Below are positions 24,208 through 58,681 of a stretch of DNA of 64,000 bases, in pieces. Position 1 is the stretch's first letter. Every line of letters begins with the position of its first letter. The notes below the pieces were generated by a model. The model saw only the letters and a list, made by a program, of their open reading frames with translations, had not been told where the DNA came from and did no database searches. The stretch covers positions 8,753-72,752 of the forward strand of contig CADBTQ010000012.1 of the NCBI GenBank assembly GCA_902797685.1, written 5' to 3'. Origin of the DNA: an uncultured Eubacteriales bacterium. Lineage in GTDB: Bacteria > Bacillota > Clostridia > Christensenellales > CAG-1252. The position numbers and the translations under genes were made by a program.

Positions 24208-27200
24208 CTATTCGATCGACTGCCCGCCGTCGTCCACCGTCCCCTCGAGGGCGTCCGTCTCCTGCGATACGGGCGCGACGAAATCGTCGGGATCGTCTTG
24301 GATGGGGGGCGCCGACTCCTCCAACATCTGCTCCGCCTCTTCGGTGACCTTGTCGGACGGGATCTCTTGCTCCTCTTGAGGGGCGTCTTCCACGTCCGCT
24401 TGCAGCTCTTCACTGACGTCTTTCTCGGGCCGCTTACTCGTGCGACGAGGCTTAGCCTCGCGGTTACGCAAAGCGATCGGCGTGACGACGAGTAGCAGTA
24501 GAGCAAGACCCAAAGCAATACACGATACGATGCACAAATGCAACAGCAGCACGGCAAGGGCAAACAACACAGACAAAATCGTCCATACGACCAAAAGCCC
24601 TTTGCCTTTTTTGTCGTTGAGGGCGCAGATCACCAACGCCAAGATGGTCGCGACCGAGGGCAAGATCGCCAGCCAACCCAAGCAATCGTCCTCCCAAAAG
24701 GCGTGAATGAACACCTTTTGGGGCGTTACGAACGCGAATTGGGACAACCTGTCCGTGGTGACGACGACCATACCGTCTTGGAGGACGTAATCCACGAAGG
24801 AAACGTCCTCGGAAGAATGGATATGCAACAAACGGAACGACTTACCTTTGATCGAGGCGGGAAGGGGCAAGCGGATGGTGATAACGGAATCGGGTTGCAC
24901 CTCGTTGCCGTCCGCGTCCAACAGGCTTACCGAATAAACGTACGCAAACTCCTCTCCTTCCGCCAAATGCTCCTTGAAGGGGGCGAACTCGGACGAGTAT
25001 TTGACGTCCTCTTGGACTGCGGCTTGCAGTTTGTACTCGCTTTCGGGATCGAGCCCGCGCACTTCGACGCCCACGCCCGAAGCCTTTAACACGGGACGAA
25101 CGACCAACACCTGCGTTTCCTCGACGGTAACGACGAAATTGTCGAACGCAAACGGTTCGTCGGTATAGATATAGTAGTCGTATCGACCCGCCGTTTCGTT
25201 GTCCACCCCGCCCAAATCGACTAAGACGGCGGCAAGGATCCGATCTTTGATCGCCTTGGCGGTAGACTCCGCAAACCCGTCCAGACCCAACACGTCGGGG
25301 CGCACTACGGGCAAGGGATCGCCCGCGTCGATAGAGAGAGAGTCGCTCACGGTCACGGTAAGGGGGCGCTTGGCGATCGTCACCTCAAATTGCCCCAAGC
25401 TGTCCGCATGGCTTTGCGCTTGGGCGCGGTAATACACGGTGTACGTCCCCGCATCGACAAAGGCGGGTAGGTCGCCGTATTCCCCGCCTTGGACAAGAGA
25501 ATAGCCAAACGTCACCTCTTTGCCGCCCGCGGCGACCGCTTGGGCGCTCAACTCGGGCACTTGGGGCAGATCGTTGTACACAAGGCTTTGCTCTTGGCTC
25601 ACCGAAACCTCGCTAAGGGCGGCGGGAGAGATCACCACCGCAAAACTGCCTTCGGTATCCAAGTGATTGGGGGCGGTAGCGCGGTAGTACACGGTATACG
25701 TCCCCGCTTCCACAAAGGCAGGTAGATCGCCGTACTCCTCGTCTATACGAGTTTTGTACCCAAAGGTCACCTTTTGACCGCCTATAGCGGTGGCGGCGGT
25801 CACAACCTGCGGGGTCTTGGCGCTACCGTCGAAGGTAAGCGAGCCCACCTGCAAAACGCTCACCTCGCTAAGGGCGGCGGGCAAGACTAGGTAAGCGCCG
25901 ACCGTCCCCTCGAAGGTCACGTCGTAATTGTCGTTGAGACTAACCCCCGTCACGTCGTACGATCCCACCGCGCTGTCGCTCGTGACGGCGGCAGAGAGTT
26001 GGTACACCTCGAAATCGTCGCTGACGATAGCGCCCGAGGTAACGGTGGCGGACAAAACGGCGGGAGAAGAGCCGTAAACCGAACTGACCTTATCCACCGT
26101 AACGACGATGGATTTGGGTAGTACGGTCAATTTGCCGCTCGTAACGGTCAATTCGTAGTTGGGGGCGACCAATCCTTGGGGGGTGATGACGTATTGTCCC
26201 ACGTCGTCGAATTGGCGGTAGGTATAGCCGTACTCTACGCCGTCGCCAAACACGCTTTCGTCCTCGCCCTCCACGAAGCCTTCGCAAAGAAGTCCGCCCG
26301 AAGCGGGCAAATCGCCATAGGCGATGGTATGATCGCGAGCGGTGACGGAGAGGGGCGCTTTGGCTACCGTTACGGCAAGTACGTCCTCCCCGTTTAGCTC
26401 AAAGCGATCGGCGATCCCCGCCGCCGAGCAGTCAAACAGGTATTCCCCCGCGTCCTTCATCACCTCAAACGATTGAGGCAGGAGCGCAAAGTCGAAAACC
26501 TCGTCCCGCCAAACGTATTGGGCGGAAACCTCTTGCAAACGATCGCAGCCGTTGTAGACGAAACGATCGACGACGACAAGATCGGACACGCCGACAAGGC
26601 GGCGCAACACGTTGAAAGCAAACTCCCCTTGGGCTATCGCAAAGTCGTACACCTTTTCGCAATCGTTGTACGCCGAGGGGTCTACGTCCCTCTCGCCGAA
26701 GCGCACGGTGACGGGGTACGCCCCGGGCAGAGCGCCCGCGGTGTAATCGGTTTGTAAGGATAAGAGATGGGATTTTGCCCACTCTTCCCACGCCGACCTA
26801 TCCTCGTCGCCGAGCCAACCCGTGATCGTGCAATCCAAAGAGGGCTGCTCGTCGAGATAGCGAATATCCGCGGGCACGACGGGGGTGACGATCAGTTGCA
26901 ATTTGGCGATAGATACGGCAAGAGTATCGACAGACAACTCAAAACACGCCTCGTCTTGCGCGTTCAAAACGAAGCGAACGTCGTATTCGCCCGGCAGGAC
27001 GAAAGAGGCTTGTTCGCCGTCTTGGGTCACCGACGATACCGCCACTTGATGGGCTTGACCGTCAAACTCAAAATAGGCGTCGATCAAGGCGGTTTGATCC
27101 TGTCCGTTGTAGACGAAGCGACCCGATTGGGTAAGAGCGTCGATCGGTCTTTTGGCGACGGTCACTTCAAACGAGCCTTTGCTATCGAGGTGATTGGGCG

Positions 27201-29640
27201 CGGTCGCCACGTAATACACGGTATAAGTACCGGGCGTGCTAAACGAGGGCAACGCCCCGTATACGCCGTCTAAGTCGCTCGAATAGGCAAAAGTCACGGT
27301 TTGACCGCCCAAAGAGGTGGCGGTCGCTTTGACCGAGGGGGTCAGCAAAGCACCGGTATAAGTCAGCGCCCCCTCTTGTGCGACCTCTACGTCACCGAGA
27401 GTCGCGGGGGCGATCGAGGCGGTCAAGACCCACCCCTCGTCGTCCACGCCCGCGTAATTGGGGTCGGTGGATACGACGCGGTAGCGGATGGTATAGTCGT
27501 TAGCCCCCATGGCTTGGGGCAATTCGTTAGTCCACTCTCCGCCGTCAAGGCTGTATTCCACCTCGCCGCGAAGGGCTTGCCCCGCACTTAGCAGCGTCAA
27601 AAGCTCCCCGTCGTAGACCAAGCCCTCTACCGCTTTGGGCGCGGATACGAGTACGCACGCCGCTTGGCGGATGGTATACGAGTGGGTGACGATCGAGGGC
27701 AACGCGTAATCGGTTTCGCCAAAAGCAAAGGCGACTGCGGCGGTATAATCTCCGGCGTTACGGAAAGAGACCGCTTCGCCGCCTTGACTGTAAGCGACGG
27801 TCAAAACGACGGACTCGCCCGCTACGTCAAGATAGGTCGCCGTGACCGCCTGTTCGGTCGCGTTATAAACGTAATCGTCCTCCGCCCAAACGATGGCGAT
27901 CACCTTGGGAGATACGGTGACGACAAAGCGCCAATCCTCCTCGCTACGATCCAAATGGTTGGCGTCCCCCACCACGCGATAGCGAACGGTATAGTCGCCC
28001 GCATGGGTAGCGGCGGGCAGATCGTCCGTCCAATCTCCCCCATCCAAACGATATTGATAATTGCCACCCGACGCGCTGCCCGCGACGCAAAGCGTTTGGA
28101 GCGTGCCGTCGAAGATCAACCCCGCCGCGCCTTGGGGGTGGGCGGTCAACGTGGGCGAGGCTTTGGCGATATTGACCGCCGCGTGCCAGTCCTCGTCGAT
28201 CGCGTCATTGTAGTTGTCGTCCCCTTGGATGCGGTAATACACCGTATAATCCCCCGCGTCGCACGCCGAGGGCAAAGCGGTAGACCACTCTACCCCGTCC
28301 AAACTATACGCCAACGCCCCCGCCGACACGGTACCCGCGTTAAGCAGCGTTTGTCCCTCTCCGTTGTAGACCAAATCGGTCTTGGCGGTGGGCGCCGCGA
28401 TCAGTATGGGGTCCGCTTTGGCGATCGTGACGGATACGCTATCCGATGGATTGACGGCAAACAGCGTTTTGTAATTGACGTATTCCACGGGGTCTTCCTC
28501 GTCGGGGACGGCAAGCGCAAAACGGTATGTCCCCGCGCCGATCATCTCGGCAAAGCCCACAGGAGTCAGGGTCATATCGAAGTCAAACGACTTGGTTTCG
28601 CCCGAATCCGAATATTCGGTCAAATAGTGCGCGGTGACGTCTAAGAGATGATCGGCGCCGTCGTAGACGAATCCGCCCGAGACCGTCAATTCGTCGGAAA
28701 GTATCTGTTTGGGATGGACGATCAAATCGTATTCCCCCTCCGCTCGGACGGGATTGGGATCGTAAACTCCCAAAAACTCTTTGTATCCCGCGGGGTACAC
28801 TTCCTCGTCCAAGTAGGATTGACCGCTGACCAACACCTCGAAGACGCCGGGGTACGAGCCCAAACGATAGTTGGTGTCCACCACGGCGACGTACTCCCTG
28901 ACGAAATCTTCCCACCTCTCTCCATCTTGTTCGGTAAGCCAACCCGAGAGGGTGTATTCGATCGTGGGTTTGTCGTCCAAAAAGCAAATGGGAGTGGGAA
29001 CGGATGGCGTAACGACCAACTGTACTCCGTTGATCGATAGGGACACGAAAGGATATTCCAAAGCAAAATTATCTTGGTCGGCGGGGGTTAGTTCCACCGT
29101 CAACACGTATTGACCGATCTCTTGGACCACCTCGGTTTCCTCGCCGGCGGCATCCAAGACGGAAAGTACGTTGATCGGGTGCGTCTCTCCCCCAAAGACA
29201 AACGAGGGCTTAACCGCCTGCCGCTGATCCTGCCCGTCGTAGGTCAGAGCGATGCTGTCGGGATAGACGTACGCTTTGGCGATGGAGACGGAAAGGACGT
29301 TGACGTCCCCTTCCCCGTCTTGATCGTCGATCCACTTGTAAGACACTTGGTACTCGCCCGCGTCAGTCCCTTGGGGGATCTCTTCCGACCAAGACACGCC
29401 GTCCAAACTATACACGAACTTGCCGTCCTCGATCACGCCCGCGTTGATCAACGCTTGCTTTTCACCCGTATAGATCAAGCCGCTTTTGGCGGTGGGGGCG
29501 GCGGTAAGGGTGGGCGCCAATAAGAGCGGGTCCTCCCAAGCCAGGGCGACTTGGGTACAAAAACCCGTCGTCAAGGCGAGTAATATCAGCAAGCCGACCC
29601 ATAATGCCGGCAACAATTTTGGAGTGCATTTCCTGACCAT
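24208..29640 (-). CDS. Giant (1810 aa) cell-surface protein with MBG/Ig-like repeats, an N-terminal signal peptide, a C-terminal triple-TM anchor and an acidic tail
   Basis: The signal peptide is LLPALWVGLLILLALTTGFCTQVALA. A module L(I/V)Y(T/N/D)G..Q.L...G....YSLDG..W...P...DAGDYTVYYR..GD.NY recurs many times. MBG-like segments read TARDHTIAYGD...VGQYVITPQG.LVAPNYELTVTSGKLTVLP. No LPXTG motif is present. Confidence 0.9.
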   Translation of the reverse strand: MVRKCTPKLLPALWVGLLILLALTTGFCTQVALAWEDPLLLAPTLTAAPTAKSGLIYTGEKQALINAGVIEDGKFVYSLDGVSWSEEIPQGTDAGEYQVSYKWIDDQDGEGDVNVLSVSIAKAYVYPDSIALTYDGQDQRQAVKPSFVFGGETHPINVLSVLDAAGEETEVVQEIGQYVLTVELTPADQDNFALEYPFVSLSINGVQLVVTPSVPTPICFLDDKPTIEYTLSGWLTEQDGERWEDFVREYVAVVDTNYRLGSYPGVFEVLVSGQSYLDEEVYPAGYKEFLGVYDPNPVRAEGEYDLIVHPKQILSDELTVSGGFVYDGADHLLDVTAHYLTEYSDSGETKSFDFDMTLTPVGFAEMIGAGTYRFALAVPDEEDPVEYVNYKTLFAVNPSDSVSVTIAKADPILIAAPTAKTDLVYNGEGQTLLNAGTVSAGALAYSLDGVEWSTALPSACDAGDYTVYYRIQGDDNYNDAIDEDWHAAVNIAKASPTLTAHPQGAAGLIFDGTLQTLCVAGSASGGNYQYRLDGGDWTDDLPAATHAGDYTVRYRVVGDANHLDRSEEDWRFVVTVSPKVIAIVWAEDDYVYNATEQAVTATYLDVAGESVVLTVAYSQGGEAVSFRNAGDYTAAVAFAFGETDYALPSIVTHSYTIRQAACVLVSAPKAVEGLVYDGELLTLLSAGQALRGEVEYSLDGGEWTNELPQAMGANDYTIRYRVVSTDPNYAGVDDEGWVLTASIAPATLGDVEVAQEGALTYTGALLTPSVKATATSLGGQTVTFAYSSDLDGVYGALPSFSTPGTYTVYYVATAPNHLDSKGSFEVTVAKRPIDALTQSGRFVYNGQDQTALIDAYFEFDGQAHQVAVSSVTQDGEQASFVLPGEYDVRFVLNAQDEACFELSVDTLAVSIAKLQLIVTPVVPADIRYLDEQPSLDCTITGWLGDEDRSAWEEWAKSHLLSLQTDYTAGALPGAYPVTVRFGERDVDPSAYNDCEKVYDFAIAQGEFAFNVLRRLVGVSDLVVVDRFVYNGCDRLQEVSAQYVWRDEVFDFALLPQSFEVMKDAGEYLFDCSAAGIADRFELNGEDVLAVTVAKAPLSVTARDHTIAYGDLPASGGLLCEGFVEGEDESVFGDGVEYGYTYRQFDDVGQYVITPQGLVAPNYELTVTSGKLTVLPKSIVVTVDKVSSVYGSSPAVLSATVTSGAIVSDDFEVYQLSAAVTSDSAVGSYDVTGVSLNDNYDVTFEGTVGAYLVLPAALSEVSVLQVGSLTFDGSAKTPQVVTAATAIGGQKVTFGYKTRIDEEYGDLPAFVEAGTYTVYYRATAPNHLDTEGSFAVVISPAALSEVSVSQEQSLVYNDLPQVPELSAQAVAAGGKEVTFGYSLVQGGEYGDLPAFVDAGTYTVYYRAQAQSHADSLGQFEVTIAKRPLTVTVSDSLSIDAGDPLPVVRPDVLGLDGFAESTAKAIKDRILAAVLVDLGGVDNETAGRYDYYIYTDEPFAFDNFVVTVEETQVLVVRPVLKASGVGVEVRGLDPESEYKLQAAVQEDVKYSSEFAPFKEHLAEGEEFAYVYSVSLLDADGNEVQPDSVITIRLPLPASIKGKSFRLLHIHSSEDVSFVDYVLQDGMVVVTTDRLSQFAFVTPQKVFIHAFWEDDCLGWLAILPSVATILALVICALNDKKGKGLLVVWTILSVLFALAVLLLHLCIVSCIALGLALLLLVVTPIALRNREAKPRRTSKRPEKDVSEELQADVEDAPQEEQEIPSDKVTEEAEQMLEESAPPIQDDPDDFVAPVSQETDALEGTVDDGGQSIE

Positions 29641-37781: not shown

Positions 37782-37828
37782 AGAACCAAAGATGAATGAT
37801 TTTTCATATTGAGGTAGTAGGAGTATAT

Positions 37829-38716
37829 ATGGGAAAGTATCATATCCAAACCAACAGCGTACAGGAAACCTTGGTGATCCCCCTCTACGGGCGCAAATTG
37901 TGTAGCGAGCGCTTCCCTGCCCTATTCAAAGACGACAAGGCGGTGGAGTTGATCGATCGGCTCGACTACGACTTCGGCGATCTGAAAAAGAGGGCGCAAA
38001 GCACGGGGTATCAATTTGGAGCGCTGGAGGTGGCGATGCGTCAAAACGACCTCTCCTACGAGATCAAGGACTATCTCGCCGCTCACCCCCAAGCCGCCAT
38101 CGTCAACTTGGGTTGCGGACTGGATCAAACCGCGGAAAACTGCCAAGGTGAACAAAACCGCGTGTACAATATCGACTTCCCCGACGTGATAAAGGCGCGC
38201 AACGTGCTCATTCCGCCCTCGGGGCTCGTTACCAATATCGCCGCCGATCTCAACGATACGTCGTGGTTTGACTCGATCGACGATACCCACGGGGTGGTCT
38301 TCGTGGCGGCGGGGGTGTTTTACTATTTCAAAACCCAATCCGTCCGCAAACTGTTTTGTGCCATGGAAAAACGGTTTGCGGGCGGCAGGTTATGCTTTGA
38401 CTCAGCCGGCAAGCGCGCGGTCAAGATCATGCTCAAAACTTGGGTCAAGCAAGCGGGCGTGACCTCGATCAAGGACTATTTCGCCCTATCCGACGCCGTC
38501 AAGGAGTTGTCCCCTTGGTTTGAGAGCGCCAATGTGACGAGCAAAGGCTATATGCTCGGCTACAACGACCTCAAAGACCCGTCCGTGCCCGCCTCTTTCC
38601 GCTTGCTCGCCCGCTTGGGCGACGGCGTAATGAAGATGCGGATCGTCAAGATCGATTGGGAGAGCAAGCGACGAGCTGGACAACTCGGCTTTGAAAAGAG
38701 TCCGAACGCGAAATAA
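37829..38716 (+). CDS. Class I SAM-dependent O-methyltransferase (LCMT/TcmP-like family)
   Basis: Start trimmed to ATG 37829. ETLVIPLYGRKLCSERFP...VNLGCGLD...YNIDFPDV resembles the COG3315/PF04072 pattern. Confidence 0.65.
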   Translation: MGKYHIQTNSVQETLVIPLYGRKLCSERFPALFKDDKAVELIDRLDYDFGDLKKRAQSTGYQFGALEVAMRQNDLSYEIKDYLAAHPQAAIVNLGCGLDQTAENCQGEQNRVYNIDFPDVIKARNVLIPPSGLVTNIAADLNDTSWFDSIDDTHGVVFVAAGVFYYFKTQSVRKLFCAMEKRFAGGRLCFDSAGKRAVKIMLKTWVKQAGVTSIKDYFALSDAVKELSPWFESANVTSKGYMLGYNDLKDPSVPASFRLLARLGDGVMKMRIVKIDWESKRRAGQLGFEKSPNAK

Positions 38717-38739
38717 ACGAACGCACAAGGAGAACGACG

Positions 38740-39360
38740 ATGGGACTACTCAAAATAGTATTTAACAACACAGGCAAGCCCCAAGGGACGATGGGCAAAA
38801 TGATGCTCAAAGGAATGAACGGCGGCTCGCACGCTACCCTTGCCGATTTCGGCATGTCCTTTTTGTCCGCGTCGGGCGTCAACCGCATCGCCGAACTGGG
38901 ATTTGGCGGAGGGCGCAATATCGGGGAATTGCTCAAAAAGTATCCTCACGCCACTTTGGACGGGGTGGATCACTCCCGCTTGTCGGTGGAGACCGCCAAA
39001 GAATACAACAAACAAAACGCCGACCGCATCGATCTAAGAGAGAGCACGATCGCCGATATGGATCTGCCCCTCGGGCGATACGATCTCGCCACCGCCTTCG
39101 AGACGGTGTACTTTTGGGGGGATATCCGCTTTTGCTTTGGCAAAGTGCACGACCTACTCAAAAGCGGCGGGAAGTTTTTGATCGTCAACGAGTCGGATGG
39201 CACGGACGATACGGGGCGCAAGTTTGAAGACATCATCGACAACATGAAAGTTTACACCGAAGAGCAACTGGTCGCAAGTCTCAAAGAAGCGGGGTTTGGC
39301 ATCGTAGAGGTACACCACCACGACCAAAAACCTTGGATCGCCATCCTTGCTCAAAAGTAA
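38740..39360 (+). CDS. Class I SAM-dependent methyltransferase
   Basis: 206 aa with motif I IAELGFGGGRN and a strong AAGGAG RBS. Confidence 0.7.
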   Translation: MGLLKIVFNNTGKPQGTMGKMMLKGMNGGSHATLADFGMSFLSASGVNRIAELGFGGGRNIGELLKKYPHATLDGVDHSRLSVETAKEYNKQNADRIDLRESTIADMDLPLGRYDLATAFETVYFWGDIRFCFGKVHDLLKSGGKFLIVNESDGTDDTGRKFEDIIDNMKVYTEEQLVASLKEAGFGIVEVHHHDQKPWIAILAQK

Positions 39361-39468
39361 CCCATGAAGTATCGCGGTATGCCCCAAGGTATGTGGGCGC
39401 TTTTTTTGCCCTATTACAACGCGAGCATCCCTGCCGCGGGGAAAACCGCGATAAAGGAGGAAAGAATT

Positions 39469-39720
39469 ATGACTAAAATCACGATAGGGATCGACGGCAT
39501 GATGTGCGGTATGTGTGAAGCGCATATTTGCGATACCATTCGCAAAGCCGTACCAAGCGCCAAAAAGGTAAAAGCGTCAAGGCACAAAAAAGAGGCGACC
39601 TTCCTTACGGACAAAGACGTGGACGAGCAAGCGGTCAAAACGGCTGTCGCCGATATGGGCTACCGCGTGCTTTCGTATCAGGCGGAAGCGTACCAAAAGC
39701 ACGGTCTGTTTGGTAAATAA
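39469..39720 (+). CDS. Heavy-metal-associated (HMA) domain protein, CopZ-like metallochaperone
   Basis: Start trimmed to ATG 39469 after AAGGAGG. The metal-binding loop GMMCGMCEAH matches GMxCxxC. Confidence 0.75.
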   Translation: MTKITIGIDGMMCGMCEAHICDTIRKAVPSAKKVKASRHKKEATFLTDKDVDEQAVKTAVADMGYRVLSYQAEAYQKHGLFGK

Positions 39721-39768
39721 GCCGTCGAAAAAACCAACCGAAGCGGAGCGATTGGCGCAAAAAGAGAA

Positions 39769-40569
39769 ATGATGGATCGAAAACCGAATTACAAAAACTG
39801 GGTGCCCACCGGTATGGTGGTGGGGTTTTGGACGGGATTTGGCGTTTGCTTGCTCTTTGCCGCCCTCTTTGGCGGATGGGGATTGACGAGCAAAACGATA
39901 TGGCAGATCGTGTTGTTTGGAGTATTTGCTTTGGGCGCCGTCGTGCTACTTCCCATCAGTCTTTATATGCAAACCTGGCACAACGCCTTCTCCTACACGG
40001 GCAAACGCAAACTGTCCAAGCGCATAGTGGAAGGCGTGGCAAACTACGTTGAGTTGACCCAAGGTCAAACTTGTTTGGACGTCGGGTGCGGCTCGGCGGC
40101 GTTGACGATAGCCGTCGCCAAACGCAATCCCCAAAGCCTTGTCGTGGGCGTGGATCGTTGGGGCAAGGACTACGCCTCTTTTTCGAAAGGGCTTTGCCAA
40201 GCCAACGCCCAAGCGGAAGGGGTAAACAACGTGCGTTTTGAAAAGGGTGACGCCACGTCTCTTCCCTTTGCGGACGAGACCTTTGACGCGGTGTGTAGCA
40301 ATTACGTCTATCACAACATCCGCTCTTCCGACAGACAAGCCATCTTGATGGAGACGCTGCGCACCCTCAAAAAGGGCGGGACGTTTGCCATCCACGACCT
40401 GTTTACCGCACAAAAATACGGGGATATGCAAGATTTCGTGCAATGTCTTCGCGACTTGGGATATCGGAAAGTGGAGTTGATCGACACGACCCAAGGGCTG
40501 CTGATGAGCGAAAAAGAGGCAAAACGACTTTGTCTTAACGGCTCGGCGATCCTAACGGGGACAAAATAA
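39769..40569 (+). CDS. Membrane-anchored class I SAM-dependent methyltransferase
   Basis: 266 aa with two N-terminal TM helices followed by motif I LDVGCGSAALT and a post-I/II region. Confidence 0.7.
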   Translation: MMDRKPNYKNWVPTGMVVGFWTGFGVCLLFAALFGGWGLTSKTIWQIVLFGVFALGAVVLLPISLYMQTWHNAFSYTGKRKLSKRIVEGVANYVELTQGQTCLDVGCGSAALTIAVAKRNPQSLVVGVDRWGKDYASFSKGLCQANAQAEGVNNVRFEKGDATSLPFADETFDAVCSNYVYHNIRSSDRQAILMETLRTLKKGGTFAIHDLFTAQKYGDMQDFVQCLRDLGYRKVELIDTTQGLLMSEKEAKRLCLNGSAILTGTK

Positions 40570-40624
40570 AAGGTGTCACCGACGGTGACACCCATTGGGC
40601 GGTCGGTAATCGACCGCTTTTTTT
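40562..40624. terminator. Pair of back-to-back hairpins terminating the convergent operons
   Basis: GGTGTCACC-gac-GGTGACACC is preceded by AAAATAAAA and serves the minus strand. GCGGTCG-gtaat-CGACCGC is followed by TTTTTTT and serves the plus strand. Confidence 0.7.
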
Positions 40625-42848: not shown

Positions 42849-43145
42849 TTATTTGACGGTGAGCACGTTGATAAAGCCGGTCACCCCGAAGATCTCGCGC
42901 ACCACGGCGTTGATGTGGTGGATCTCCATCTCTTTGCCGGCGTCGTCCAACTCGCGCTTGAGCGCCAACAGCACCCGAAGTCCCGCCGAGGAGATGTATT
43001 CCACCTCGGAAAAGTCCAAGACGACCTTGTTTTCGGTGATGGTCTCGCTCTTGATGGCTTGATCAAACTGCGCCGAGGTGACGGTGTCCAATCTGCCGAT
43101 GATTTTGACGTTAAACTCTTGACCGTGTTCAAATCTGACTTCCAT
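42849..43145 (-). CDS. STAS-domain anti-sigma-factor-antagonist-like protein (RsbV/SpoIIAA family)
   Basis: 98 aa. LDFSEVEYISSAGLRVLLAL contains the conserved phospho-acceptor Ser context. Confidence 0.9.
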   Translation of the reverse strand: MEVRFEHGQEFNVKIIGRLDTVTSAQFDQAIKSETITENKVVLDFSEVEYISSAGLRVLLALKRELDDAGKEMEIHHINAVVREIFGVTGFINVLTVK

Positions 43146-44901
43146 TTTTTTGTTCTCCTAACTTGATTTTGAATACCGTATTATTGAGGTTGAGTACCCT
43201 CATATAATTCATTTCGTCTGCCAACCCCTCGATCAAGGCGATGCCGCCCGTGAGGTACTGTTCGTCCTGCTCGTACTCGTACTTAGTGGGGTCGAAAGGC
43301 ATGCCGTCGTCACGGATACGAAGGAGCATTTCCTCCGCCCCTATTTTGAGATTGACGTCTACGAAGTGGGCGGCTTGCCGCTTGTAACCGTAGTGCACGA
43401 TATTGGCGACCATCTCCTCGCAAGCCAAGCCGACCACCTGTGCGTTGCGGTTGTCCACCCCGTGGGACAACGCGAAATCGACCACGTCTTTGGAGACGAC
43501 CGCCGCGTTCTCTTCCCTGTTTTCGACCGAGATGTCAAAGGTATTGACGTCGTCTTTTTCCAACATGAACAGTCCGTGATATTGCTTGTGCTTGGCATTG
43601 TAGATCAGCACGAACGCGTACGTCACGATAATGACCGCCACCTCGGTGACCACCCGTGCCAGAGCAAAGCCGAACATACCGTTGGTTTTGAGTAACACCA
43701 AAGTCAACGGAATGATAAACACCGCTTCCCGCAAGATGACCGCCACGATAGCGGGCAGGTTTTTGCCGATGGCGGGATAATAGTTGGTCGAAAACTTGTT
43801 GATCTCCAAGGGGATCGCCGCAATCAGGTAGATGCGCAAGATGTACTCCACTTGTCCGAGAGAGAGGCCCGTCCCCTTAAAGCCGAACAAAGAGGCGTAG
43901 GCACGGGGCCATATCATAATGAGGGCGGTCAGGGCGGCGGTCACCGCGATATTGATCCAATAGATACGACTGACCACCGATTTGAGGGAGTAAAAATCCC
44001 TCTCCCCATGCAGCACCCCGCACACGTTGGGGATAAGTCCCAATATACCGCCCGAAAAGAGGTCGAACACAAAGATCAAGTTGCTCACCAAACCAAAGAT
44101 GATCAGATCCACCTCGGCGGTGATCATGCGGCTGAACACCACGTTGATGACGAAAGTCTGCACCGCAAGGAGCAAAAAAGTCAACGCGGTGGGCAGTGAC
44201 GCCTTGACAGCCGCGCCAAACTCCTTGGCAGCCCCTTTGAGGTTGAAGGTAAACTTGAGCATCCTCTTTTTGGAGCGGGCATAAAAGATGACGGTGACAA
44301 GCCCTACCGCATAGCCGAAGGGCGTAGACAAAGCGGCGCCGTACGCCCCCATCGAAAACACCTTGATAAACAAGATCTCCGCGCCCACCTTGACGGCGTT
44401 GGCGAGGATATAAAAGATAGAAGACAGGCGGGGATTGTTGTCGGTGGCGATAAAGGTCGCCAGCATCATGGCAAGCATGAGCACCGGGTCGGTCGCCATG
44501 TACACCAAGATATATTGGTAGGACTCCTCCACCAAACTCTCGGCAAACAGCCCCGCCAAGGGGCGCGCCACGAAGGGAGAGAGGATGGCGAACACCGCCG
44601 ATACCGCCGTCCCCCATATCAGACACGCCGAAAACACCTTGTTGGCGGCGACGAGATTGCGCTTGCCCAACAAGTTGGCGATGGCGATGGAGCCGCCCGC
44701 CGCCAAGGCAAAGCCGGGGATCTGTATGACGTACAAGACGGGCATGACCAAAGAGTCGGCGGTAAGCGAGTCCGATCCGATCATGTTGCCGATGAGGATG
44801 CCGTCTAATAGCGACCCAAACTGCATGGCAAAGATCATCAGCACCGACGGGAGCAGATATTGATAAAACTTTTTGTTGATCAGCTTGGCGTTGCGTTGCA
44901 T
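43129..44901 (-). CDS. MATE-family efflux transporter fused to a C-terminal RsbW/SpoIIAB-like GHKL kinase domain
   Basis: Start trimmed to ATG 44901 (TAATG overlap with the NRPS stop). The N-terminal ~445 aa is a 12-TM MATE domain (FYQYLLPSVLMIFAMQFGSLLDGILIG). The last ~146 aa (43132-43569) carry the N-box EEMVANIVHYG, G1 RDDGMPFDP and G2 GGIALIEGL. Confidence 0.8.
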   Translation of the reverse strand: MQRNAKLINKKFYQYLLPSVLMIFAMQFGSLLDGILIGNMIGSDSLTADSLVMPVLYVIQIPGFALAAGGSIAIANLLGKRNLVAANKVFSACLIWGTAVSAVFAILSPFVARPLAGLFAESLVEESYQYILVYMATDPVLMLAMMLATFIATDNNPRLSSIFYILANAVKVGAEILFIKVFSMGAYGAALSTPFGYAVGLVTVIFYARSKKRMLKFTFNLKGAAKEFGAAVKASLPTALTFLLLAVQTFVINVVFSRMITAEVDLIIFGLVSNLIFVFDLFSGGILGLIPNVCGVLHGERDFYSLKSVVSRIYWINIAVTAALTALIMIWPRAYASLFGFKGTGLSLGQVEYILRIYLIAAIPLEINKFSTNYYPAIGKNLPAIVAVILREAVFIIPLTLVLLKTNGMFGFALARVVTEVAVIIVTYAFVLIYNAKHKQYHGLFMLEKDDVNTFDISVENREENAAVVSKDVVDFALSHGVDNRNAQVVGLACEEMVANIVHYGYKRQAAHFVDVNLKIGAEEMLLRIRDDGMPFDPTKYEYEQDEQYLTGGIALIEGLADEMNYMRVLNLNNTVFKIKLGEQKNGSQI

Positions 44902-52180: not shown

Positions 52181-53353
52181 TTAAAAAGCCAGCGAATCGA
52201 CCGAAGCGATCAACTTAGCCAATTCCTTTTTGTAGAATGCGATCTCCTCCGCGTGGTCTTCCCCGCGGTGCAAAGTGCGGCGGACGGCGCGTTGCAACAG
52301 GCGGGTGTACCCGATGACTTGCGCCTTTTCGGCATACCCTTTGAGGGTCTCCTCGTCGGTGGTGTCGAAGTATTTTTGCAAAGTCTTGTGCCACACTTGA
52401 ATGGACTCGTCCGCGGTGATACCCAAGAAGTCGCCCGCGTGATCCATGTCAAGCGAGTGGAATCCGATATAGGCGTTGAACACCGAGCCGAACTCGAACA
52501 CGGGGTTGCCCACGCACAAAGTATCCATATCGATCAAGATGGCTTCGCCGTTTTGGACCATCACGTTTTTGAGGTGATAGTCCCCGTGGATGAGGTGATG
52601 GGACTCGGGTACGGCTTTGACCAGTTGCTCCAATTTGGCGCCCACGTCCTCGTCCAAGTAGGTCTTGGCGATGTTGACCCACCTAAGCGCCAATTCCTTG
52701 ATATTGGGGATGTCTTCGTCTTCCACCTCGATGGAGTGGATCTTTTTGAGCAGATCCACGTAGATATCCACGTAATGATCCAATTTGTCGGGTTCTTGGG
52801 TGATGCACGCCGCCAAGGATTTGGCGTTGAGCAACTCGAACACGGTGCCGTACAACTTGCCCACTTGCACGATGTCGTAGGAGATGGCGGTGTTGACGCC
52901 CAGCACGAACGCCTTTTTGGCGAGCGAGCGCTCCCTTTGGATGTCCTCGAAGCTGTCGGGGTTGGCGTAGACCTTGACGATGGTCTCGGGATCGATGCGA
53001 TACACCTTGCCGTTGGCGCCCTCGCCGATGACCTCGCAACCGTCCACCGATATCTTTTTGTACGCCTTTTCCACGGGCATCAACTCGGTAAAGCCGGTCA
53101 TGTCGAAGATCTCGTACACGTCGGTGGTGACGTTGACGAGTTTGAGGCTGCTATACGACTTGCGCAGACGCAAGACAACTCGTAGTCCCGCCGACGAGAT
53201 GTACTCCAGATCGGCAAGATCCAGCACCAGTTGGTCAAACGACTGACCGCTCAGCACCCGGTTGATCTCCTGCGCCACCGCTTCGGCGTTGTTGGAGTCG
53301 ATACGACCGTCCAAATAGATGACCAATTTACTTCCGATAAACTCATTTCTCAT
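52181..53353 (-). CDS. STAS domain fused to a protein-kinase-like / aminoglycoside-phosphotransferase-fold kinase domain
   Basis: 390 aa. The N-terminal STAS is LDLADLEYISSAGLRVVLRL. It is followed by the Gly loop IGEGANGKVYRI..VKVY, the catalytic HGDYHLKNVMV and the metal-binding LIDMD. Confidence 0.8.
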   Translation of the reverse strand: MRNEFIGSKLVIYLDGRIDSNNAEAVAQEINRVLSGQSFDQLVLDLADLEYISSAGLRVVLRLRKSYSSLKLVNVTTDVYEIFDMTGFTELMPVEKAYKKISVDGCEVIGEGANGKVYRIDPETIVKVYANPDSFEDIQRERSLAKKAFVLGVNTAISYDIVQVGKLYGTVFELLNAKSLAACITQEPDKLDHYVDIYVDLLKKIHSIEVEDEDIPNIKELALRWVNIAKTYLDEDVGAKLEQLVKAVPESHHLIHGDYHLKNVMVQNGEAILIDMDTLCVGNPVFEFGSVFNAYIGFHSLDMDHAGDFLGITADESIQVWHKTLQKYFDTTDEETLKGYAEKAQVIGYTRLLQRAVRRTLHRGEDHAEEIAFYKKELAKLIASVDSLAF

Positions 53354-53919
53354 TGTGGTTCCCCCTTAAATACCAAGTAAACTAATTGTTTGTATTCCAA
53401 ATATGCGAACGTGTCGCCCAATTCGCTCTCCAGTAAGCCCAATATCGAGCGATAGTACCATTCGTGTTGGGCTTTGCGCCTCTCGTTAAACGCCTCGAAC
53501 ACGCGGTTGCCGATGAGCACGTAATCTTTGGAAAGCGCACGCATGTTGCTCAATTTGTCGGACAGCCACACGATCTTTTCTTCTCTGTTGGCTTTTGCCA
53601 ACTCGTCCAAGGATTCCTGCTTGCGTATCTTCCAAGTGACGGAAGCGGGCTGGTCTTTGCGCTTGTTTTCGGTCTCGCTCTTAACTAGGGCGAGCACCCT
53701 CTTGCCAAACAACTCTTCCACTTCCTCCTCCGTGGCGTCGGTGTCTTCGAGTACGTCGTGCAGAAGCGCCGCGATGATGACGTCCTCGTCGTCTGTCAGC
53801 GAAGCCGCCACCGCCGCCGCTTCCATGGGATGCAGGATATACGGCACGTGCGACAACTTGCGTATCTGCCCCTCGTGCATTCGAGCGGCATAGTCGATCG
53901 CTAATTGTAGTCTCGTCAT
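53350..53919 (-). CDS. HD-domain protein of the RelA/SpoT (p)ppGpp-hydrolase type (small alarmone hydrolase-like)
   Basis: The track ORF is trimmed to ATG 53919 (ATGA overlap with the upstream stop). YILHPMEAA...ALLHDVLEDTDAT matches the H...HD...ED signature of SpoT-type hydrolases. 189 aa. Confidence 0.75.
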   Translation of the reverse strand: MTRLQLAIDYAARMHEGQIRKLSHVPYILHPMEAAAVAASLTDDEDVIIAALLHDVLEDTDATEEEVEELFGKRVLALVKSETENKRKDQPASVTWKIRKQESLDELAKANREEKIVWLSDKLSNMRALSKDYVLIGNRVFEAFNERRKAQHEWYYRSILGLLESELGDTFAYLEYKQLVYLVFKGEPQ

Positions 53920-55949
53920 AGTTTTTTCTCCAATATCAATATATTTTGCCCGTCGACGTAGTCGTAGCGCACGTCGTCGACCAAGCGTTTGGTCATATAT
54001 ACCCCCAATCCGCCCTCTTTGCGCTCCTCGGCGCTCAAGGTCACGTCGGGCTCTTTGGCGGCGAGAGGGTTGTAGGGTTTGCCGTGGTCTTGGAAGGTGA
54101 TAGACAGCTTGTCCTCTATCCACTGCAGCTTGACAACGACGTCGCCCGCTTGCCGCCCCAGATAGGCGTAACTCGCGACGTTGACGAAGATCTCCTCCAC
54201 CGCGACCCCCAACTGCATCAGCCACTTGGGGCTATCCGCTTTTTGAGAGGCAAACCCCTCCACAAAAGCGTTCACGTCGTCCAACTCTTTGGGATCGGCG
54301 GCAAACGTTCTCGTCTCACCGCCGCCTCCTTGATAACTCATACAAAGCATAGTCATATCGTCAAATTGGGGCGCTTCGCCCACAAACGCGCCCACTCGCG
54401 CTACAACGTCCTCGACAGTGGCTTGGGGAGTATTGCCCGCCAACGTCTTCAACGCCTCGAGGGTGGCGTCCAATCCAAACATCTTTTGCTCGCCGTCGGT
54501 GGCTTCGGGCACCCCGTCGGTGTAGAGGAACAACTTGTCTCCCCGCTTCATGGTAAACTCGAAGTTGGTGTATTTGACCCCCTCCATCGCGCCCACGATC
54601 ACCCCGCGCTTGGCTTTGACGAACTCGGCGCTCCCGTCGGGATGGGTCAGGATGGGTTGGTCGTGTCCCGCGTTGGAAGCGATCACTTTGCCGGTGGATA
54701 TCTCCACTATTCCCAACCATATCGTCACGAACATCTCGGCTTGGTTGTGCGAGCAGATGCGGTCGTTGACGAACGCCATTGCGTCCGCGGGACTTAATCC
54801 GCTCGTCACCCCCTCGTTGAGAAGGATCTTGGTGACCATCATAAACAGAGCCGCGGGCACGCCCTTACCCGACACGTCGCCGATCATCACGGCAAGGTGA
54901 TCGGGATCGACCAAGAAAAAGTCGTAGAAGTCGCCTCCCACTTGCTTGGCGGGATTCATGATCCCGTACAAGTCGAACTCCTTGCGATCGGGAAACGCGG
55001 GGAACCGGGAGGGCAACGACCCTTCCTGTATTTGCTTGGCGATATCCAACTCCGCCCCGATCTTTTGTTTTTCGGCGATGGCGTCGGACAAGTGGTCGAT
55101 GTACTCCAGAGTGGCGGTCTCCATCGTCGCCATGGCTTGCGCCAAAGCGGAGATCTCGGAGATACGGCTGATATTGCCATCCAAAGGCACGTCGGGAGCG
55201 CTGTTGTGGGTGGCAAAGCGCTGCGCTTCGTCCATGATGGTGCGGATGGGCTTGACGAATTGATCTTTGGCGATGAACACGTAAGCGGTGATGACGACCA
55301 ACGCCAACAGCGCCGTCGTCACGCTGATGATGATCGCGTAACTATTGCCCCACTTGTGCAACAAGTCCATCGACTGCTGTACGCAGATGATCCCCGCCAC
55401 CGTGCCGTCCTGCCGCTTTAGCGGGATAAGGCTGTTGATATGCGCGGGCGCCGAAGCGGTGCGTTCTCTCGTGACGGTCGCGCGCTCCAACTTTCCCTCC
55501 ATCAGGTCTTGGTACACGCCCCAGTAGTCGGACGACTTTTGCTCCCAGACCGAGCCCAGTTCCCACGGGGTGTAGCCCGACCTATCGCTCGGACAGTTGA
55601 TGATAGAGGTGTATTTGTGATAGTCGTACTCTTCCAAGGGGCGGATGATATAGACGATGTACACCCCTTGATTTTCGCAAAACTGCTTAAGCAGCGCGGT
55701 CTTTTGGGCATGCTCGTCCAATTTGTCGCCCGCAAGATACGCGTCCGCGTCCTCTCCGGTGACGAATTGGGTCACTGTGGTCGCGGTGGCAAAAGCGGAC
55801 TCGTTGTAGCGGGTGGTCAAGGTATCGTTGAACTTGCTGTACCCGATCGCCGCCGTGATCACGCCGAAAATCACCAACAGGATCGTCGTCGACACCACGA
55901 TATTGAAAACGAGCGAATTATGTATGCGCTTTGCCTTTGATTTTGCCAT
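53916..55949 (-). CDS. Transmembrane sensor (Cache-like ectodomain) / HAMP / PP2C phosphatase fused to a C-terminal RsbW-like GHKL domain
   Basis: 677 aa. The PP2C motifs are GGDFYDFFLV...VMIGDVSGKGVPAALFMM...LFLYTDGVPE...DDMTMLCM. The C-terminus has the N-box EEIFVNVASYA, QDHGKPYNP and EGGLGVYMTKRL. Confidence 0.85.
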   Translation of the reverse strand: MAKSKAKRIHNSLVFNIVVSTTILLVIFGVITAAIGYSKFNDTLTTRYNESAFATATTVTQFVTGEDADAYLAGDKLDEHAQKTALLKQFCENQGVYIVYIIRPLEEYDYHKYTSIINCPSDRSGYTPWELGSVWEQKSSDYWGVYQDLMEGKLERATVTRERTASAPAHINSLIPLKRQDGTVAGIICVQQSMDLLHKWGNSYAIIISVTTALLALVVITAYVFIAKDQFVKPIRTIMDEAQRFATHNSAPDVPLDGNISRISEISALAQAMATMETATLEYIDHLSDAIAEKQKIGAELDIAKQIQEGSLPSRFPAFPDRKEFDLYGIMNPAKQVGGDFYDFFLVDPDHLAVMIGDVSGKGVPAALFMMVTKILLNEGVTSGLSPADAMAFVNDRICSHNQAEMFVTIWLGIVEISTGKVIASNAGHDQPILTHPDGSAEFVKAKRGVIVGAMEGVKYTNFEFTMKRGDKLFLYTDGVPEATDGEQKMFGLDATLEALKTLAGNTPQATVEDVVARVGAFVGEAPQFDDMTMLCMSYQGGGGETRTFAADPKELDDVNAFVEGFASQKADSPKWLMQLGVAVEEIFVNVASYAYLGRQAGDVVVKLQWIEDKLSITFQDHGKPYNPLAAKEPDVTLSAEERKEGGLGVYMTKRLVDDVRYDYVDGQNILILEKKL

Positions 55950-55952: not shown

Positions 55953-57503
55953 TTAGCCTCCCAATTTGCTGATGATCTCGGGCAGACGGAGCACAAGTTG
56001 ATAAAAGCCCTCGAGGTAGCAGATGACAAAGCCGACCATACCCACGGTGGGGATGATCATATCGATAGACGAAGGCTTGTAGGTGCGTGTGTACGAAAAC
56101 AGCATGATGAACGGTATCACCAAAAGCAGCACGAAAGACTGTCCGAACCCGAGCCGTTGGGCGAGATCCGCTCCCGACACCACCCCCTCGATGACGAGCG
56201 GACTCGTTTTTTCGATGACGGCGGCAACGACAAAATACAGTATGATATCCAATATGGCGACGACCAACAAAAAGACGGACGCCGAAATAGAGAAATGCAA
56301 CGAATTGAGGTTGGTCTTAAGAAAGGCTTGATATTCCTCTCTGCTTTTGCCTCGGTGCAAAAACACCCTCTCGCGGTTTTTGATAAAGAACGACAACCCG
56401 ATAAAAGTCAAAAAGGTCAAAGGCGCCTTGGTGGTCAGGAAGGGGAACACGTAAACGGGCACGTTGAGTTCGGGGTGCAATACGCACAGGTATTTGGCGA
56501 CGAACGAACCCACCTCGTACAATACGGGCAAAATGGCAAGCAGGCGGAATAGTACCAGTTTTTTGCCCACGAACACTTTTTTGGGAGTGTAATTGACAAA
56601 AAAGGTAAACAGCGTGCAGACGAACAAATCGACGAAAATGTTGAACGCCATGTATCCCTTCCCGGAGAAAGACTTGAACAGAGTGCTTGCCGTCGCCGCC
56701 GCGTCCGTTCCCTCCGAGCCGTCGGCCATCATTTTGATAATGCCCAAAAGGTATCGCTGGTACAACAGCATAAACGCGCCGAACACGAGAAGCGCCATAA
56801 ACGCGTAAGTCGCCAACAATCGCTGATAACCGTTTTTGGCGTTGATGATGACCGCGAAATTCGCCATCAAAAACAAAGGGACGGACAAGGTGCCGAATAT
56901 CTGCAAAAAGACGACCAAGCCGCTAAACTTCATGAGTTTGGCGTCGAAGCGCATGCCCAAAGACAAGATCAAAGCGACCTGGGTGCCGATAATGGCAAGC
57001 CAGGCGAAAACGCGAAGATAACGATAAGACAACGGTCCGCGGTAGCGGATATCGTTTGCCAACGTGACCTCGTCGATCCGACGACGGCGTTTCCCTTTGC
57101 GTTTTTTCCCTTTGCGCCGGGTTTCGCCGTCCGCGGTCGTGTCGGCGGGGACTTCTCCCTCTTGCGTTACGACCGACTCGACGAGCTCCTCCTCTTGCAC
57201 GCCGTTTGCGTCGTCCGAAGTATCGGCTGCCCCGTCCGTCTCGGACGCCGCATCGGACTCGGCGGGCAACTCCTTTGGGGTTTGCTCAATGAAGGCAGCT
57301 CCCTCGCCGTCTTGCGCAACCGCCGTCTCTTCATTCCCCGACGCTTCGTGATCCTGTCGGGAGTCGATCGAGGCGACCGAGACTGCATTTTGAGGGGTCA
57401 CATCTTCTTCCTTATCCACAAAAACATCCTCGGCGGGAGCCAAGGGTGCTTTTGGGGTGTCGCTTGTTTGAGCGGGATCGACCCGTTCCGATTTACGTTT
57501 CAT
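55953..57503 (-). CDS. Polytopic membrane protein with a ~140-aa acidic disordered N-terminus and a polybasic patch; unknown function
   Basis: 516 aa with RRKGKKRKGKRRRR before the first of ~9-10 hydrophobic helices. Its stop is 3 nt from the next start, whose RBS (GGGAGG) lies inside its last codons. Confidence 0.7.
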   Translation of the reverse strand: MKRKSERVDPAQTSDTPKAPLAPAEDVFVDKEEDVTPQNAVSVASIDSRQDHEASGNEETAVAQDGEGAAFIEQTPKELPAESDAASETDGAADTSDDANGVQEEELVESVVTQEGEVPADTTADGETRRKGKKRKGKRRRRIDEVTLANDIRYRGPLSYRYLRVFAWLAIIGTQVALILSLGMRFDAKLMKFSGLVVFLQIFGTLSVPLFLMANFAVIINAKNGYQRLLATYAFMALLVFGAFMLLYQRYLLGIIKMMADGSEGTDAAATASTLFKSFSGKGYMAFNIFVDLFVCTLFTFFVNYTPKKVFVGKKLVLFRLLAILPVLYEVGSFVAKYLCVLHPELNVPVYVFPFLTTKAPLTFLTFIGLSFFIKNRERVFLHRGKSREEYQAFLKTNLNSLHFSISASVFLLVVAILDIILYFVVAAVIEKTSPLVIEGVVSGADLAQRLGFGQSFVLLLVIPFIMLFSYTRTYKPSSIDMIIPTVGMVGFVICYLEGFYQLVLRLPEIISKLGG

Positions 57504-57554: not shown

Positions 57555-58628
57555 TCAGGAATTGGTTTTGCGGACGTTTGCGCCGTAAATGGTCGTCCAG
57601 TCGTCGCGCATGGAGATGACGTGGAAGCCCTCGGCTTTCCATTGCTCGCCGAGCTTTTCGGCTTTGACGGTATTGCCGTAATCGCGCGCTTCGTCGTTGG
57701 CGATCAACATAAACACCGCGGCTTTGTAGCGGTTGCGGGTCACGGTGTAGCGGTGCATGCTGACGTCGCCCGAACTGTTGCCGAAAGACAACACGGGTTG
57801 CTTGTCGATCTCTTGCACGATCTGCAACACTTTGTTGGTTTTGAGGTTTTTGACAAGCAAGGTATCGGTGCGCAACACCTCGTCGCCACGGGCGAATTGA
57901 TAATCGAGACTGTCCGCATCCCCTTGATCGGTCGCGCGGAGTTTGACGTCCATACCGATGATCTGCTCGTTGGGAATGTGGCAGGGCTCGCTTGCCAAGG
58001 CGCGGCAGATAAAGCGATCCGAACCCGAAACGATGTAGGTCTTAAACCCGTTTTGTTGCAAGTAGTCGATGACCTCGAGCATGGGCTGATAAAACGCCGA
58101 GCCGTAGGTCATGCCCGCAAACCCCTCGGGAGTCTTTTTGAGGAAGTCGGCAACGTAAGCCTCGAAGTCCTTGACGCTCATCCCCTCAAAAGCTTTGGCT
58201 TGCGCCAAGGCGTGTTGCATCGCCATATCCGAGGGATAGCTCCAATCGTGCTTGCTGTCGCGAATGAGTTGCGCCACTCTCTTCACCTCTTCGGGAGCCT
58301 CGTAGTTAGGATCGTCCAACCCGCGGTACTCGAGGAGCAAATACTCCAAATAGGTGGGGAACAATTCCCCGTACAGGGTGCCGTCCATATCGAACACGGC
58401 GATACGATCTTCCACGGGGATAAAGGTGTCCGCATTGTTGTCTGTCACCGATGCGACGTATTGTTTGAGTGCGGAGAGAGAGGAACAATCGTTCCAATAA
58501 TGAAAGCGATACTCGCTCTCCTCTTGTTTGCACCCCACGAAGGCGCAAGACGCCAAGACGACCGCCAGTACCAAAACGGCGATCACGAGGGAAGTCAATT
58601 TGCTTGCGTTGATTTTGCGATCATTCAT
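57555..58628 (-). CDS. HAD-superfamily (subfamily IB-like) hydrolase, probable lipoprotein
   Basis: Start trimmed to ATG 58628 after GAGGTG. The signal/lipobox is VLAVVLASCAFVGC, HAD motif I is VFDMDGTL, and later motifs are IVSGSD and FGNSSGD. Confidence 0.75.
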   Translation of the reverse strand: MNDRKINASKLTSLVIAVLVLAVVLASCAFVGCKQEESEYRFHYWNDCSSLSALKQYVASVTDNNADTFIPVEDRIAVFDMDGTLYGELFPTYLEYLLLEYRGLDDPNYEAPEEVKRVAQLIRDSKHDWSYPSDMAMQHALAQAKAFEGMSVKDFEAYVADFLKKTPEGFAGMTYGSAFYQPMLEVIDYLQQNGFKTYIVSGSDRFICRALASEPCHIPNEQIIGMDVKLRATDQGDADSLDYQFARGDEVLRTDTLLVKNLKTNKVLQIVQEIDKQPVLSFGNSSGDVSMHRYTVTRNRYKAAVFMLIANDEARDYGNTVKAEKLGEQWKAEGFHVISMRDDWTTIYGANVRKTNS

Positions 58629-58681
58629 AAAACACCTCGACATAAGGACGCCCGCTGATCAAGCGGAGCGTCGAATATTCG

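Follow-up and report, generated by a model that had tools for sequence, protein, structure and literature searches.

Why should a pump that lies beside a peptide assembly line carry, on its cytoplasmic side, a domain of the kind best known from the control of sigma factors? The question is raised by one gene in the 64,000-nucleotide stretch of DNA that we analyzed (the window), which comes from an uncultured Eubacteriales bacterium (contig CADBTQ010000012.1). The gene encodes a protein of 590 amino acids in which a MATE transporter with 12 transmembrane (TM) helices runs directly into a domain resembling RsbW and SpoIIAB, and it is flanked by a gene for a nonribosomal peptide synthetase (NRPS) and a gene for a free-standing STAS protein. 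An earlier reading made from the letters alone (the sequence-only reading) had noticed this arrangement and had supposed that the STAS protein docks on, or is phosphorylated by, the transporter tail, making efflux of the NRPS product responsive to the state of the switch. On the evidence assembled here, we suggest that the pump exports the NRPS product, that a partner-switching module is tethered to it, and that docking, and probably phosphorylation, of STAS at the tail gates export, a reading to which we assign a probability of about one half.

The fusion itself is confirmed: the protein consists of a 12-TM MATE transporter, made of two six-helix lobes, and a cytoplasmic RsbW/SpoIIAB-type domain. 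Pfam recognizes both parts within one open reading frame (ORF), and a full-length AlphaFold model (predicted local distance difference test [pLDDT] 79.9, predicted template-modeling score [pTM] 0.75) shows twelve long helices and, behind them, a domain with the topology beta-alpha-alpha-beta-beta-lid-alpha-beta-beta. The best Foldseek matches of this model are PfMATE (6FHZ; TM-score 0.83, 443 columns aligned) and DinF-BH (4LZ6), and the colibactin exporter ClbM (4Z3N) is also among its structural matches. The export function of the core is a prediction: D33 in TM1 and the motif D154-N155-N156-P157 are invariant in 72 sequences, and we infer that D33 and the D154 region correspond to D41 and D184 of PfMATE, the cation-coupling residues of that protein. 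Between TM12 and the tail there is a conserved linker of approximately 14 residues. A frameshift introduced by sequencing or assembly, the pitfall that the sequence-only reading had itself named, would make the two parts separate genes. That explanation is ruled out, because core and tail form the same uninterrupted ORF, 585-626 amino acids long, in about 65 independent genomes at 24-78% identity and in hundreds of metagenomic proteins with full-length coverage; nothing we found speaks in its favor, and its probability is negligible.

What kind of domain is the tail? Sequence profiles and a structural model show it to be a Bergerat domain of the anti-sigma-kinase type, as the sequence-only reading had proposed, and the Pfam search by which that reading thought the assignment could be checked is positive (Table 1). 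When the tail was modeled alone (pLDDT 87.4), the top 14 Foldseek matches were all of this type (SpoIIAB, RsbW, and UsfX of M. tuberculosis; E values 3e-8 to 4e-6, TM-scores 0.74-0.85), and histidine kinases entered the structure search only at E>=1e-3. A family profile of the tail compared with PDB sequences has SpoIIAB (3e-4) and RsbW (1e-3) as its best matches; Rv1364c is also among the PDB matches. The family profile was needed for this result, as single-sequence searches of the tail, and of the C-terminal domain of the PP2C protein described below, produced only chance matches to PDB sequences. In the profile, the N-box of the tail aligns to SpoIIAB SEAVTNAIIHGY, and its RDDG aligns to RDEG of SpoIIAB.

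The Bergerat motifs that had been quoted for the tail are all present, and the N-box and G1 box hold invariant residues in an alignment of 65 sequences, in which Y566, R568, and N573-N574-T575 are invariant as well. The G2 region has fared less well; it is degenerate and matches the consensus poorly, having been reduced from GGLGL to G-I, and it is two residues shorter than the canonical GGxGL, with G553 its only conserved position. In kinases of this type, the glutamate and asparagine of the N-box and the Asp-x-Gly of the G1 box are the contacts to Mg-ATP and adenine. The mean corrected distance among tails is 0.57, compared with 0.61 for the MATE core, which means that the tail evolves as slowly as the transporter to which it is attached. 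Because E496, N500, D531, and G533 are invariant and the tail is so tightly constrained, the alignment argues for retained nucleotide binding; phosphorylation of STAS by the tail is plausible but unproven.

The remaining parts of a partner switch are encoded next to the fusion. The genes for the NRPS, the fusion, the STAS protein, and a membrane PP2C phosphatase look like a single operon, since they overlap or nearly abut and a terminator-like hairpin, which is probably the operon end, lies past the PP2C gene. The NRPS stop codon and the start codon of the fusion have one A in common (TAATG, position 44901), with AAGGAG 8 nucleotides upstream; the fusion ends (stop codon 43129-43131) only after the ATG of the STAS gene (43145), an overlap of 17 nucleotides; and 10 nucleotides separate the STAS gene from the PP2C gene. 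Both junctions with the fusion are as the sequence-only reading described them. Its conclusion that NRPS, exporter, and STAS are stoichiometrically coupled holds insofar as overlapping genes in one operon argue for translational coupling, but a fixed stoichiometry is not implied by overlaps. Its set of three genes, although correctly placed in one operon, omitted the fourth gene with its second RsbW-like domain, as well as a STAS/PP2C/RsbW module upstream. Because that fourth operon gene encodes both a PP2C phosphatase and a second RsbW-like domain, the switch module is complete, with two RsbW-like partners. The same site past the PP2C gene (40571..40619) holds two facing hairpins with T-rich tails and resembles a bidirectional terminator, situated between the PP2C gene and a convergent methyltransferase gene.

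For the STAS protein, the Pfam assignment is joined by a score of 57 bits against TIGR00377 (cut-off 53.45). The motif Y50-I-S52-S53-A-G55-L-R57 is invariant in 62 sequences; a distant branch keeps A-S-A-G-L, so that S53 (codon 42987-42989), two residues before the glycine, is the constant serine. From the correspondence of SSAGL with DSSGL of SpoIIAA, we take S53 to occupy the position of the phosphorylated serine, Ser58 in SpoIIAA and Ser56 in RsbV. Downstream sequence of 1 kb or more is available for 68 loci; 58 of these (85%) include a STAS gene, which follows the fusion immediately in 51 and lies elsewhere in the locus in 7.

The PP2C protein begins with TM1, a divergent outside domain of about 230 amino acids (no Pfam match even at E<=1), TM2, and a linker, and continues into a SpoIIE-type PP2C domain (residues 405-589) and the second RsbW-like domain (613-730). 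Across 46 sequences, the metal-site motifs GGDFY, DVxGKG, TDG, and DD.T of this PP2C domain are conserved. Of the phosphatase models in NCBIfam, SiaA comes closest, although its score is well below the cut-off. A PP2C gene is present in 40 of the 54 loci with enough flank. The second RsbW-like domain evolves twice as fast as the tail; the copy in the window, like that of most close relatives, no longer has the G1 Asp (SSNG) but retains GGFG. In Ruminococcus, Selenomonadaceae, and the metagenome-assembled genome (MAG) of a methanogen, a domain of this second type occurs as a standalone protein of about 140 amino acids beside a PP2C protein that is without it, and there it is fully canonical (E..N, D-x-G, GGLG). 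In another set of proteins, which we call MATE-K-K (754-786 amino acids), it is fused directly behind the tail-type domain, and hidden Markov models part the two types (138 vs 44 bits for the first domain, 48 vs 79 bits for the second); one MATE-K-K gene sits between the end of an NRPS gene and a STAS gene. RsbW and SpoIIAB act as dimers. From these three alternative fusion states (to PP2C, standalone, and behind the tail), it seems likely that the second RsbW-like domain and the tail form a pair at the pump.

Table 1. Features of the operon, its surroundings, and related loci. Coordinates are those of the window unless a locus (L) is named; P, protein; aa, amino acids.
Feature	Coordinates	Strand	Assignment or conservation
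NRPS, 2403 aa	44901..52112	-	Pfam: Condensation x2, AMP-binding x2, PP-binding x2, NAD_binding_4
MATE fusion, 590 aa from ATG	43129..44901	-	MatE and HATPase_c_2 in one ORF
MATE core, residues 1-440, 12 TM helices	43582..44901	-	Pfam MatE 3.8e-21, two stretches
Cytoplasmic RsbW/SpoIIAB-like tail, residues 445-590 (146 aa)	43132..43569	-	HATPase_c_2 1.4e-14, residues 460-568
N-box EEMVANIVHYG, residues 495-505	43387..43419	-	E496 and N500 invariant (65-sequence alignment)
G1 box RDDGMPFDP, residues 530-538	43288..43314	-	D531, D532, G533, F536, D537, and P538 invariant (65 sequences)
Degenerate G2 region GGIALIEGL, residues 552-560	43222..43248	-	only G553 conserved, 63/65
Free-standing STAS protein, 98 aa	42849..43145	-	Pfam STAS 1.3e-14
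Membrane PP2C phosphatase with second RsbW-like domain, 736 aa	40628..42838	-	Pfam SpoIIE 2.2e-39, HATPase_c_2 5.7e-11
Terminator-like hairpin, 10-bp stem and T-rich tail	40571..40593	-	directly past PP2C gene
STAS domain fused to APH-type phosphotransferase	52181..53353	-	Pfam
HD_4 hydrolase	53350..54225	-	Pfam
PP2C with fully canonical RsbW-like domain	53916..55949	-	Pfam; NCBIfam RsbW 2e-11; canonical motifs
516-aa protein without family match	55953..57503	-	
HAD hydrolase	57555..58643	-	
Standalone second RsbW-like proteins	L050:293-742, L052:338-757, L054:328-747, L058:316-711, L059:277-693, L071:10395-10793		
MATE-K-K fusions	P0132, P0210, P0228; L082:888-3248, L083:1447-3720		

A database survey shows the fusion to be widespread and to recur in the company of NRPS, STAS, and PP2C genes, a set that is retained across phyla. 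A search with the complete fusion returned 321 relatives, and the best 120 of these, examined for length, domains, and coverage, are all 569-596 amino acids long and contain both domains, with query coverage of 96% or more. When one genome per species was scanned, a relative was encoded in 99 genomes, from which 75 loci were kept. An exhaustive search with the tail alone gave 271 clusters (50% identity) at E<=1e-10, and the best-scoring of them are mostly full-length MATE fusions of 570-606 amino acids with the tail at the C-terminus. The hosts are chiefly uncultured bacteria of the rumen and gut (Christensenellales, Erysipelotrichaceae/Acholeplasmatales/Bacilli, Ruminococcus, Lachnospiraceae, and Selenomonadaceae), with Christensenellales-like rumen MAGs providing the relatives at 73-78% identity. 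A second branch of the fusion is found in Treponema, Chitinispirillales, Synergistaceae, a Desulforhopalus isolate, and methanogens (Methanimicrococcus and Ca. Methanofilum). The presence of the whole cassette, or of the fusion alone, in methanogenic archaea (a Ca. Methanofilum arcanum MAG, L071, and the Methanimicrococcus proteins P0353 and P0357) points to horizontal movement from bacteria to methanogens.

Clustering of all ORFs in 81 loci identified only four families that widely accompany the fusion (80 loci): NRPS in 69, STAS in 59, PP2C in 54, and a phosphopantetheinyl transferase (PPTase) in 35. The NRPS gene adjoins the fusion in 69 of the 81. Neither a sigma factor nor a regulator that binds DNA proved to be conserved in the same clustering. 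An abundant branch (a cluster of 361 members; L079-81) has the order fusion, three-module reductase-terminated NRPS, STAS, with no PP2C gene nearby, and Lachnospiraceae loci (L067-69) have this same order. Since NRPS, fusion, and STAS stay together when the gene order changes and when a PP2C gene is not close by, the trio is the stable core of the system.

The sequence-only reading knew of no GHKL anti-sigma-type kinase fused to a MATE pump. As regards the literature this stands, in that our searches on MatE with HATPase_c_2, or on partner switching with MATE, found no study of the fusion. As regards the databases it does not, given that the architecture is common there, that many of these proteins bear the JGI pipeline name [quoted passage not shown] and that a similar set of genes was described by Leahy et al. 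(2010). NCBI names them "ATP-binding protein" or "MATE family efflux transporter," and NCBIfam has no dedicated model for the MATE/RsbW-like fusion. The fusion is thus already visible in automatic annotation, yet uncharacterized.

How might such a device work? With its parts, their conservation, and their linkage before us, and with no conserved sigma factor gene nearby, we infer the contacts and the effect on transport as follows. The membrane PP2C protein, fed by an envelope or extracellular signal, would act together with RsbW-like kinase activity to set the phosphorylation state of Ser53 in STAS. In its unphosphorylated form, STAS would bind to the tail of the transporter in the manner of SpoIIAA on SpoIIAB, and docking would alter the way in which the tail acts, through the short TM12 linker, on the cytoplasmic face of the MATE core. 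The altered tail would then gate the release of what the NRPS makes, which is probably a reactive peptide aldehyde; activation and inhibition are both possible. Candidates for the partner that a switch of STAS would bind or free are the MATE core in cis, the second RsbW-like domain, and the NRPS. The tail would also bind nucleotide and probably phosphorylate STAS, resetting the switch, with the kinase activity coming from the tail, the second RsbW-like domain, or both. The second domain would probably pair with the tail in imitation of the RsbW or SpoIIAB homodimer, and the phosphatase would thereby be brought to the pump. More tentatively, we picture natural-product export as gated post-translationally by a heterodimeric STAS receptor-kinase, formed by the tail and the second RsbW-like domain, with the membrane PP2C feeding in an outside signal.

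Several observations weigh against a switch that gates the pump. Compared with the second RsbW-like domains of these loci, the tail has an ATP lid that is shorter by some 10 residues, and the canonical G2 glycines are gone, and because of these two features the tail may bind STAS or nucleotide without catalyzing phosphotransfer. No STAS gene is present in the examined DNA of 10 of the 68 loci. Five of these (L038, L039, L066, L072, and L077) have the NRPS and the MATE fusion without a detectable STAS or PP2C gene in approximately 10 kb downstream, and despite this their tails retain the conserved residues; several of the others are short or incomplete contigs. One of the MATE-K-K loci, L083, is without an NRPS gene on its 10-kb contig. 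Distances among STAS proteins do follow those of the tail (partial r 0.61, controlled for the MATE core) and of the second RsbW-like domain (0.58) and not those of the PP2C domain (0.13), which speaks for a link to STAS, but such mirror-tree correlations are built on non-independent points, carry no significance test, and count in our view as weak evidence.

The same architecture would also serve if information flowed the other way. The MATE core could act as a transceptor that senses substrate load or the transport cycle and modulates the kinase or binding activity of the tail, with phosphorylated STAS reporting export status to some other target, be it the PP2C protein, the NRPS, or a regulator encoded elsewhere in the genome. 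The short conserved linker between TM12 and the tail permits coupling in either direction, and the invariant nucleotide-binding residues fit a regulated kinase. The loci, however, contain no conserved effector beyond the pump, the NRPS, and the PP2C protein, and the membrane PP2C has a divergent sensor region of its own, which is a more natural point of input; we regard a sensing pump as unlikely. A tail that merely keeps another protein, such as the NRPS or a sigma factor encoded elsewhere, bound at the membrane until STAS competes it off would explain why the lid and G2 region suit a binder more than an enzyme. The nearest structural relatives of the tail are anti-sigma factors, one of which, UsfX, has no kinase activity, and the tight linkage and translational coupling of NRPS and fusion would fit the NRPS as the captive. 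Pure sequestration would have no need of invariant N-box and G1 residues, though, and no test here points to contact with the NRPS. A classical anti-sigma role is unlikely because no sigma factor gene is conserved in the 81 loci and the system also occurs in methanogenic archaea, which are without bacterial sigma factors. Taken as a whole, sequestration seems to us distinctly improbable.

There is, finally, a published view of a comparable cluster that would keep the functions apart. In the rumen methanogen Methanobrevibacter ruminantium M1, an NRPS is flanked by MatE, an anti-sigma factor antagonist, and serine phosphatases (mru0066-mru0071; Leahy et al. 2010, PMC2812497). The NRPS has two modules and, in Figure S8 of that report, a thioester reductase end; the genes are of likely bacterial origin, and sensing, regulation of NRPS expression, and export were proposed as separate roles (PMC2812497). 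Carried over to the present locus, the tail would be a degenerate structural or dimerization appendage, and STAS and PP2C would regulate NRPS expression independently of it. The degenerate G2 region and the loci without STAS agree with such a division of labor. Against it stand the strong purifying selection that the tail shows at its catalytic-type residues and the joint occurrence of tail and STAS in loci with no further RsbW-like or PP2C gene close by, and the loci offer no transcription factor through which expression could be controlled. We therefore give this view very little credence and continue to prefer a switch wired to the exporter. The M. ruminantium MatE was treated as a plain efflux protein, with no mention there of a kinase-like tail (PMC2812497); the corresponding gene, mru_0069, is expressed. 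A search seeded with the homologue from the methanogen MAG recovered Methanimicrococcus proteins, and none labeled Methanobrevibacter was among the 120 matches listed.

Against the background of characterized partner switches, the module is a mixture of the familiar and the new. Like SpoIIE-SpoIIAA-SpoIIAB and RsbU-RsbV-RsbW of Bacillus, it comprises a PP2C phosphatase, a single-domain STAS protein with the canonical serine, and a GHKL domain with N-box and G1. Unlike those modules, it has no linked sigma factor, its RsbW-like domain is fused to a 12-TM MATE transporter and has a reduced ATP lid and G2 box, and there is a second domain of the RsbW-like kind. In its lack of a sigma-directed output it resembles the group that includes HsbR/HsbA and SiaABCD of P. 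aeruginosa, SypE/SypA of V. fischeri, BtrUVW of Bordetella, and Rv1364c of M. tuberculosis, a group that also includes fused PP2C-kinase proteins; the combination of PP2C and RsbW-like domain in one polypeptide, as in our fourth gene, recalls HsbR, SypE, and Rv1364c. We know of no transporter-borne RsbW-like domain, and of no location within a natural-product cluster, among the Hsb, Sia, Syp, Btr, and Rv1364c systems, and our searches found none. Non-sigma outputs are known from the Sia, Btr, and Syp systems (reviewed in PMC8256260).

The closest parallels on the side of the transporter are found in other families or other clusters. SulP/SLC26 anion transporters likewise carry a STAS/anti-sigma component on the cytoplasmic C-terminus of a secondary transporter (PMC8256260); here, in contrast, it is the kinase-like partner that is fused and the STAS protein that is free (the 98-amino-acid gene product), and the transporter belongs to MATE/MOP, not to SLC26. 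ClbM, encoded with the colibactin NRPS-PKS island, offers the precedent of a MATE transporter dedicated to the product of the adjacent assembly line. Export by ClbM is not known to be controlled by phosphorylation. Its chain of 431 residues (4Z3N) leaves no room for an extra domain of 146 residues such as the one described here.

If the exporter is indeed the output, this would be the first partner-switching system to act on a transporter. Partner switches are known mainly for sigma factors and, more recently, for a few enzymes and secretion, and a version wired to a MATE pump would extend them to the direct control of transport. It would also represent a widespread device, mobile by horizontal transfer, with which methanogens and the bacteria of gut and rumen control their NRPS products, and it would give a handle on when these anaerobes release reactive peptides. 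Such peptides are believed to target proteases of the host or of neighboring cells. The family is large and conserved and occurs almost always in the same genetic context, so a single biochemical study would explain hundreds of gene clusters. Moreover, the tail (146 amino acids) and STAS (98 amino acids) are small and soluble, which makes the central claim directly testable.

The nature of the exported compound can be judged from the NRPS, whose domain order is C-A-T-C-A-T-R, R being a terminal reductase recognized by Pfam. Its product is probably an N-acyl dipeptide aldehyde, an assignment for which we draw on this domain order and on Leahy et al. (2010). In its domain order and its neighboring exporter, the locus matches the two-module NRPS clusters with a terminal reductase that occur in anaerobes of the gut and rumen. 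Related loci encode a PPTase beside the NRPS (35 loci), whereas a search of the whole window for a PPTase homologue found none.

Directly upstream of the NRPS gene, and on the same strand, lies a second switch-like module, in which a STAS-APH fusion, an HD_4 hydrolase, and a PP2C-RsbW protein are encoded in a row (52181..55949). It is outside the conserved core, and a STAS-APH fusion occurs near the cluster in only about five related loci (L023, L030, L065, L076, and one more). Cross-talk between this module and the one at the exporter is possible.

Other genes of the window deserve brief mention. Immediately beyond the 3' end of the operon, three methyltransferase-like genes stand in a row on the other strand (37796..40569, forward strand), one of the LCM type and two of the class I S-adenosylmethionine types. 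Farther away, an ORF of 1810 amino acids (24208..29640, reverse strand), in which only MBG_2 and CopC-like matches were detected, probably encodes a cell-surface protein. The window also includes a bona fide sporulation SpoIIE gene (17562..19823, forward strand) with both SpoIIE_N and PP2C domains; since this protein is encoded in the same stretch, the host probably has the classical sporulation partner switch as well.

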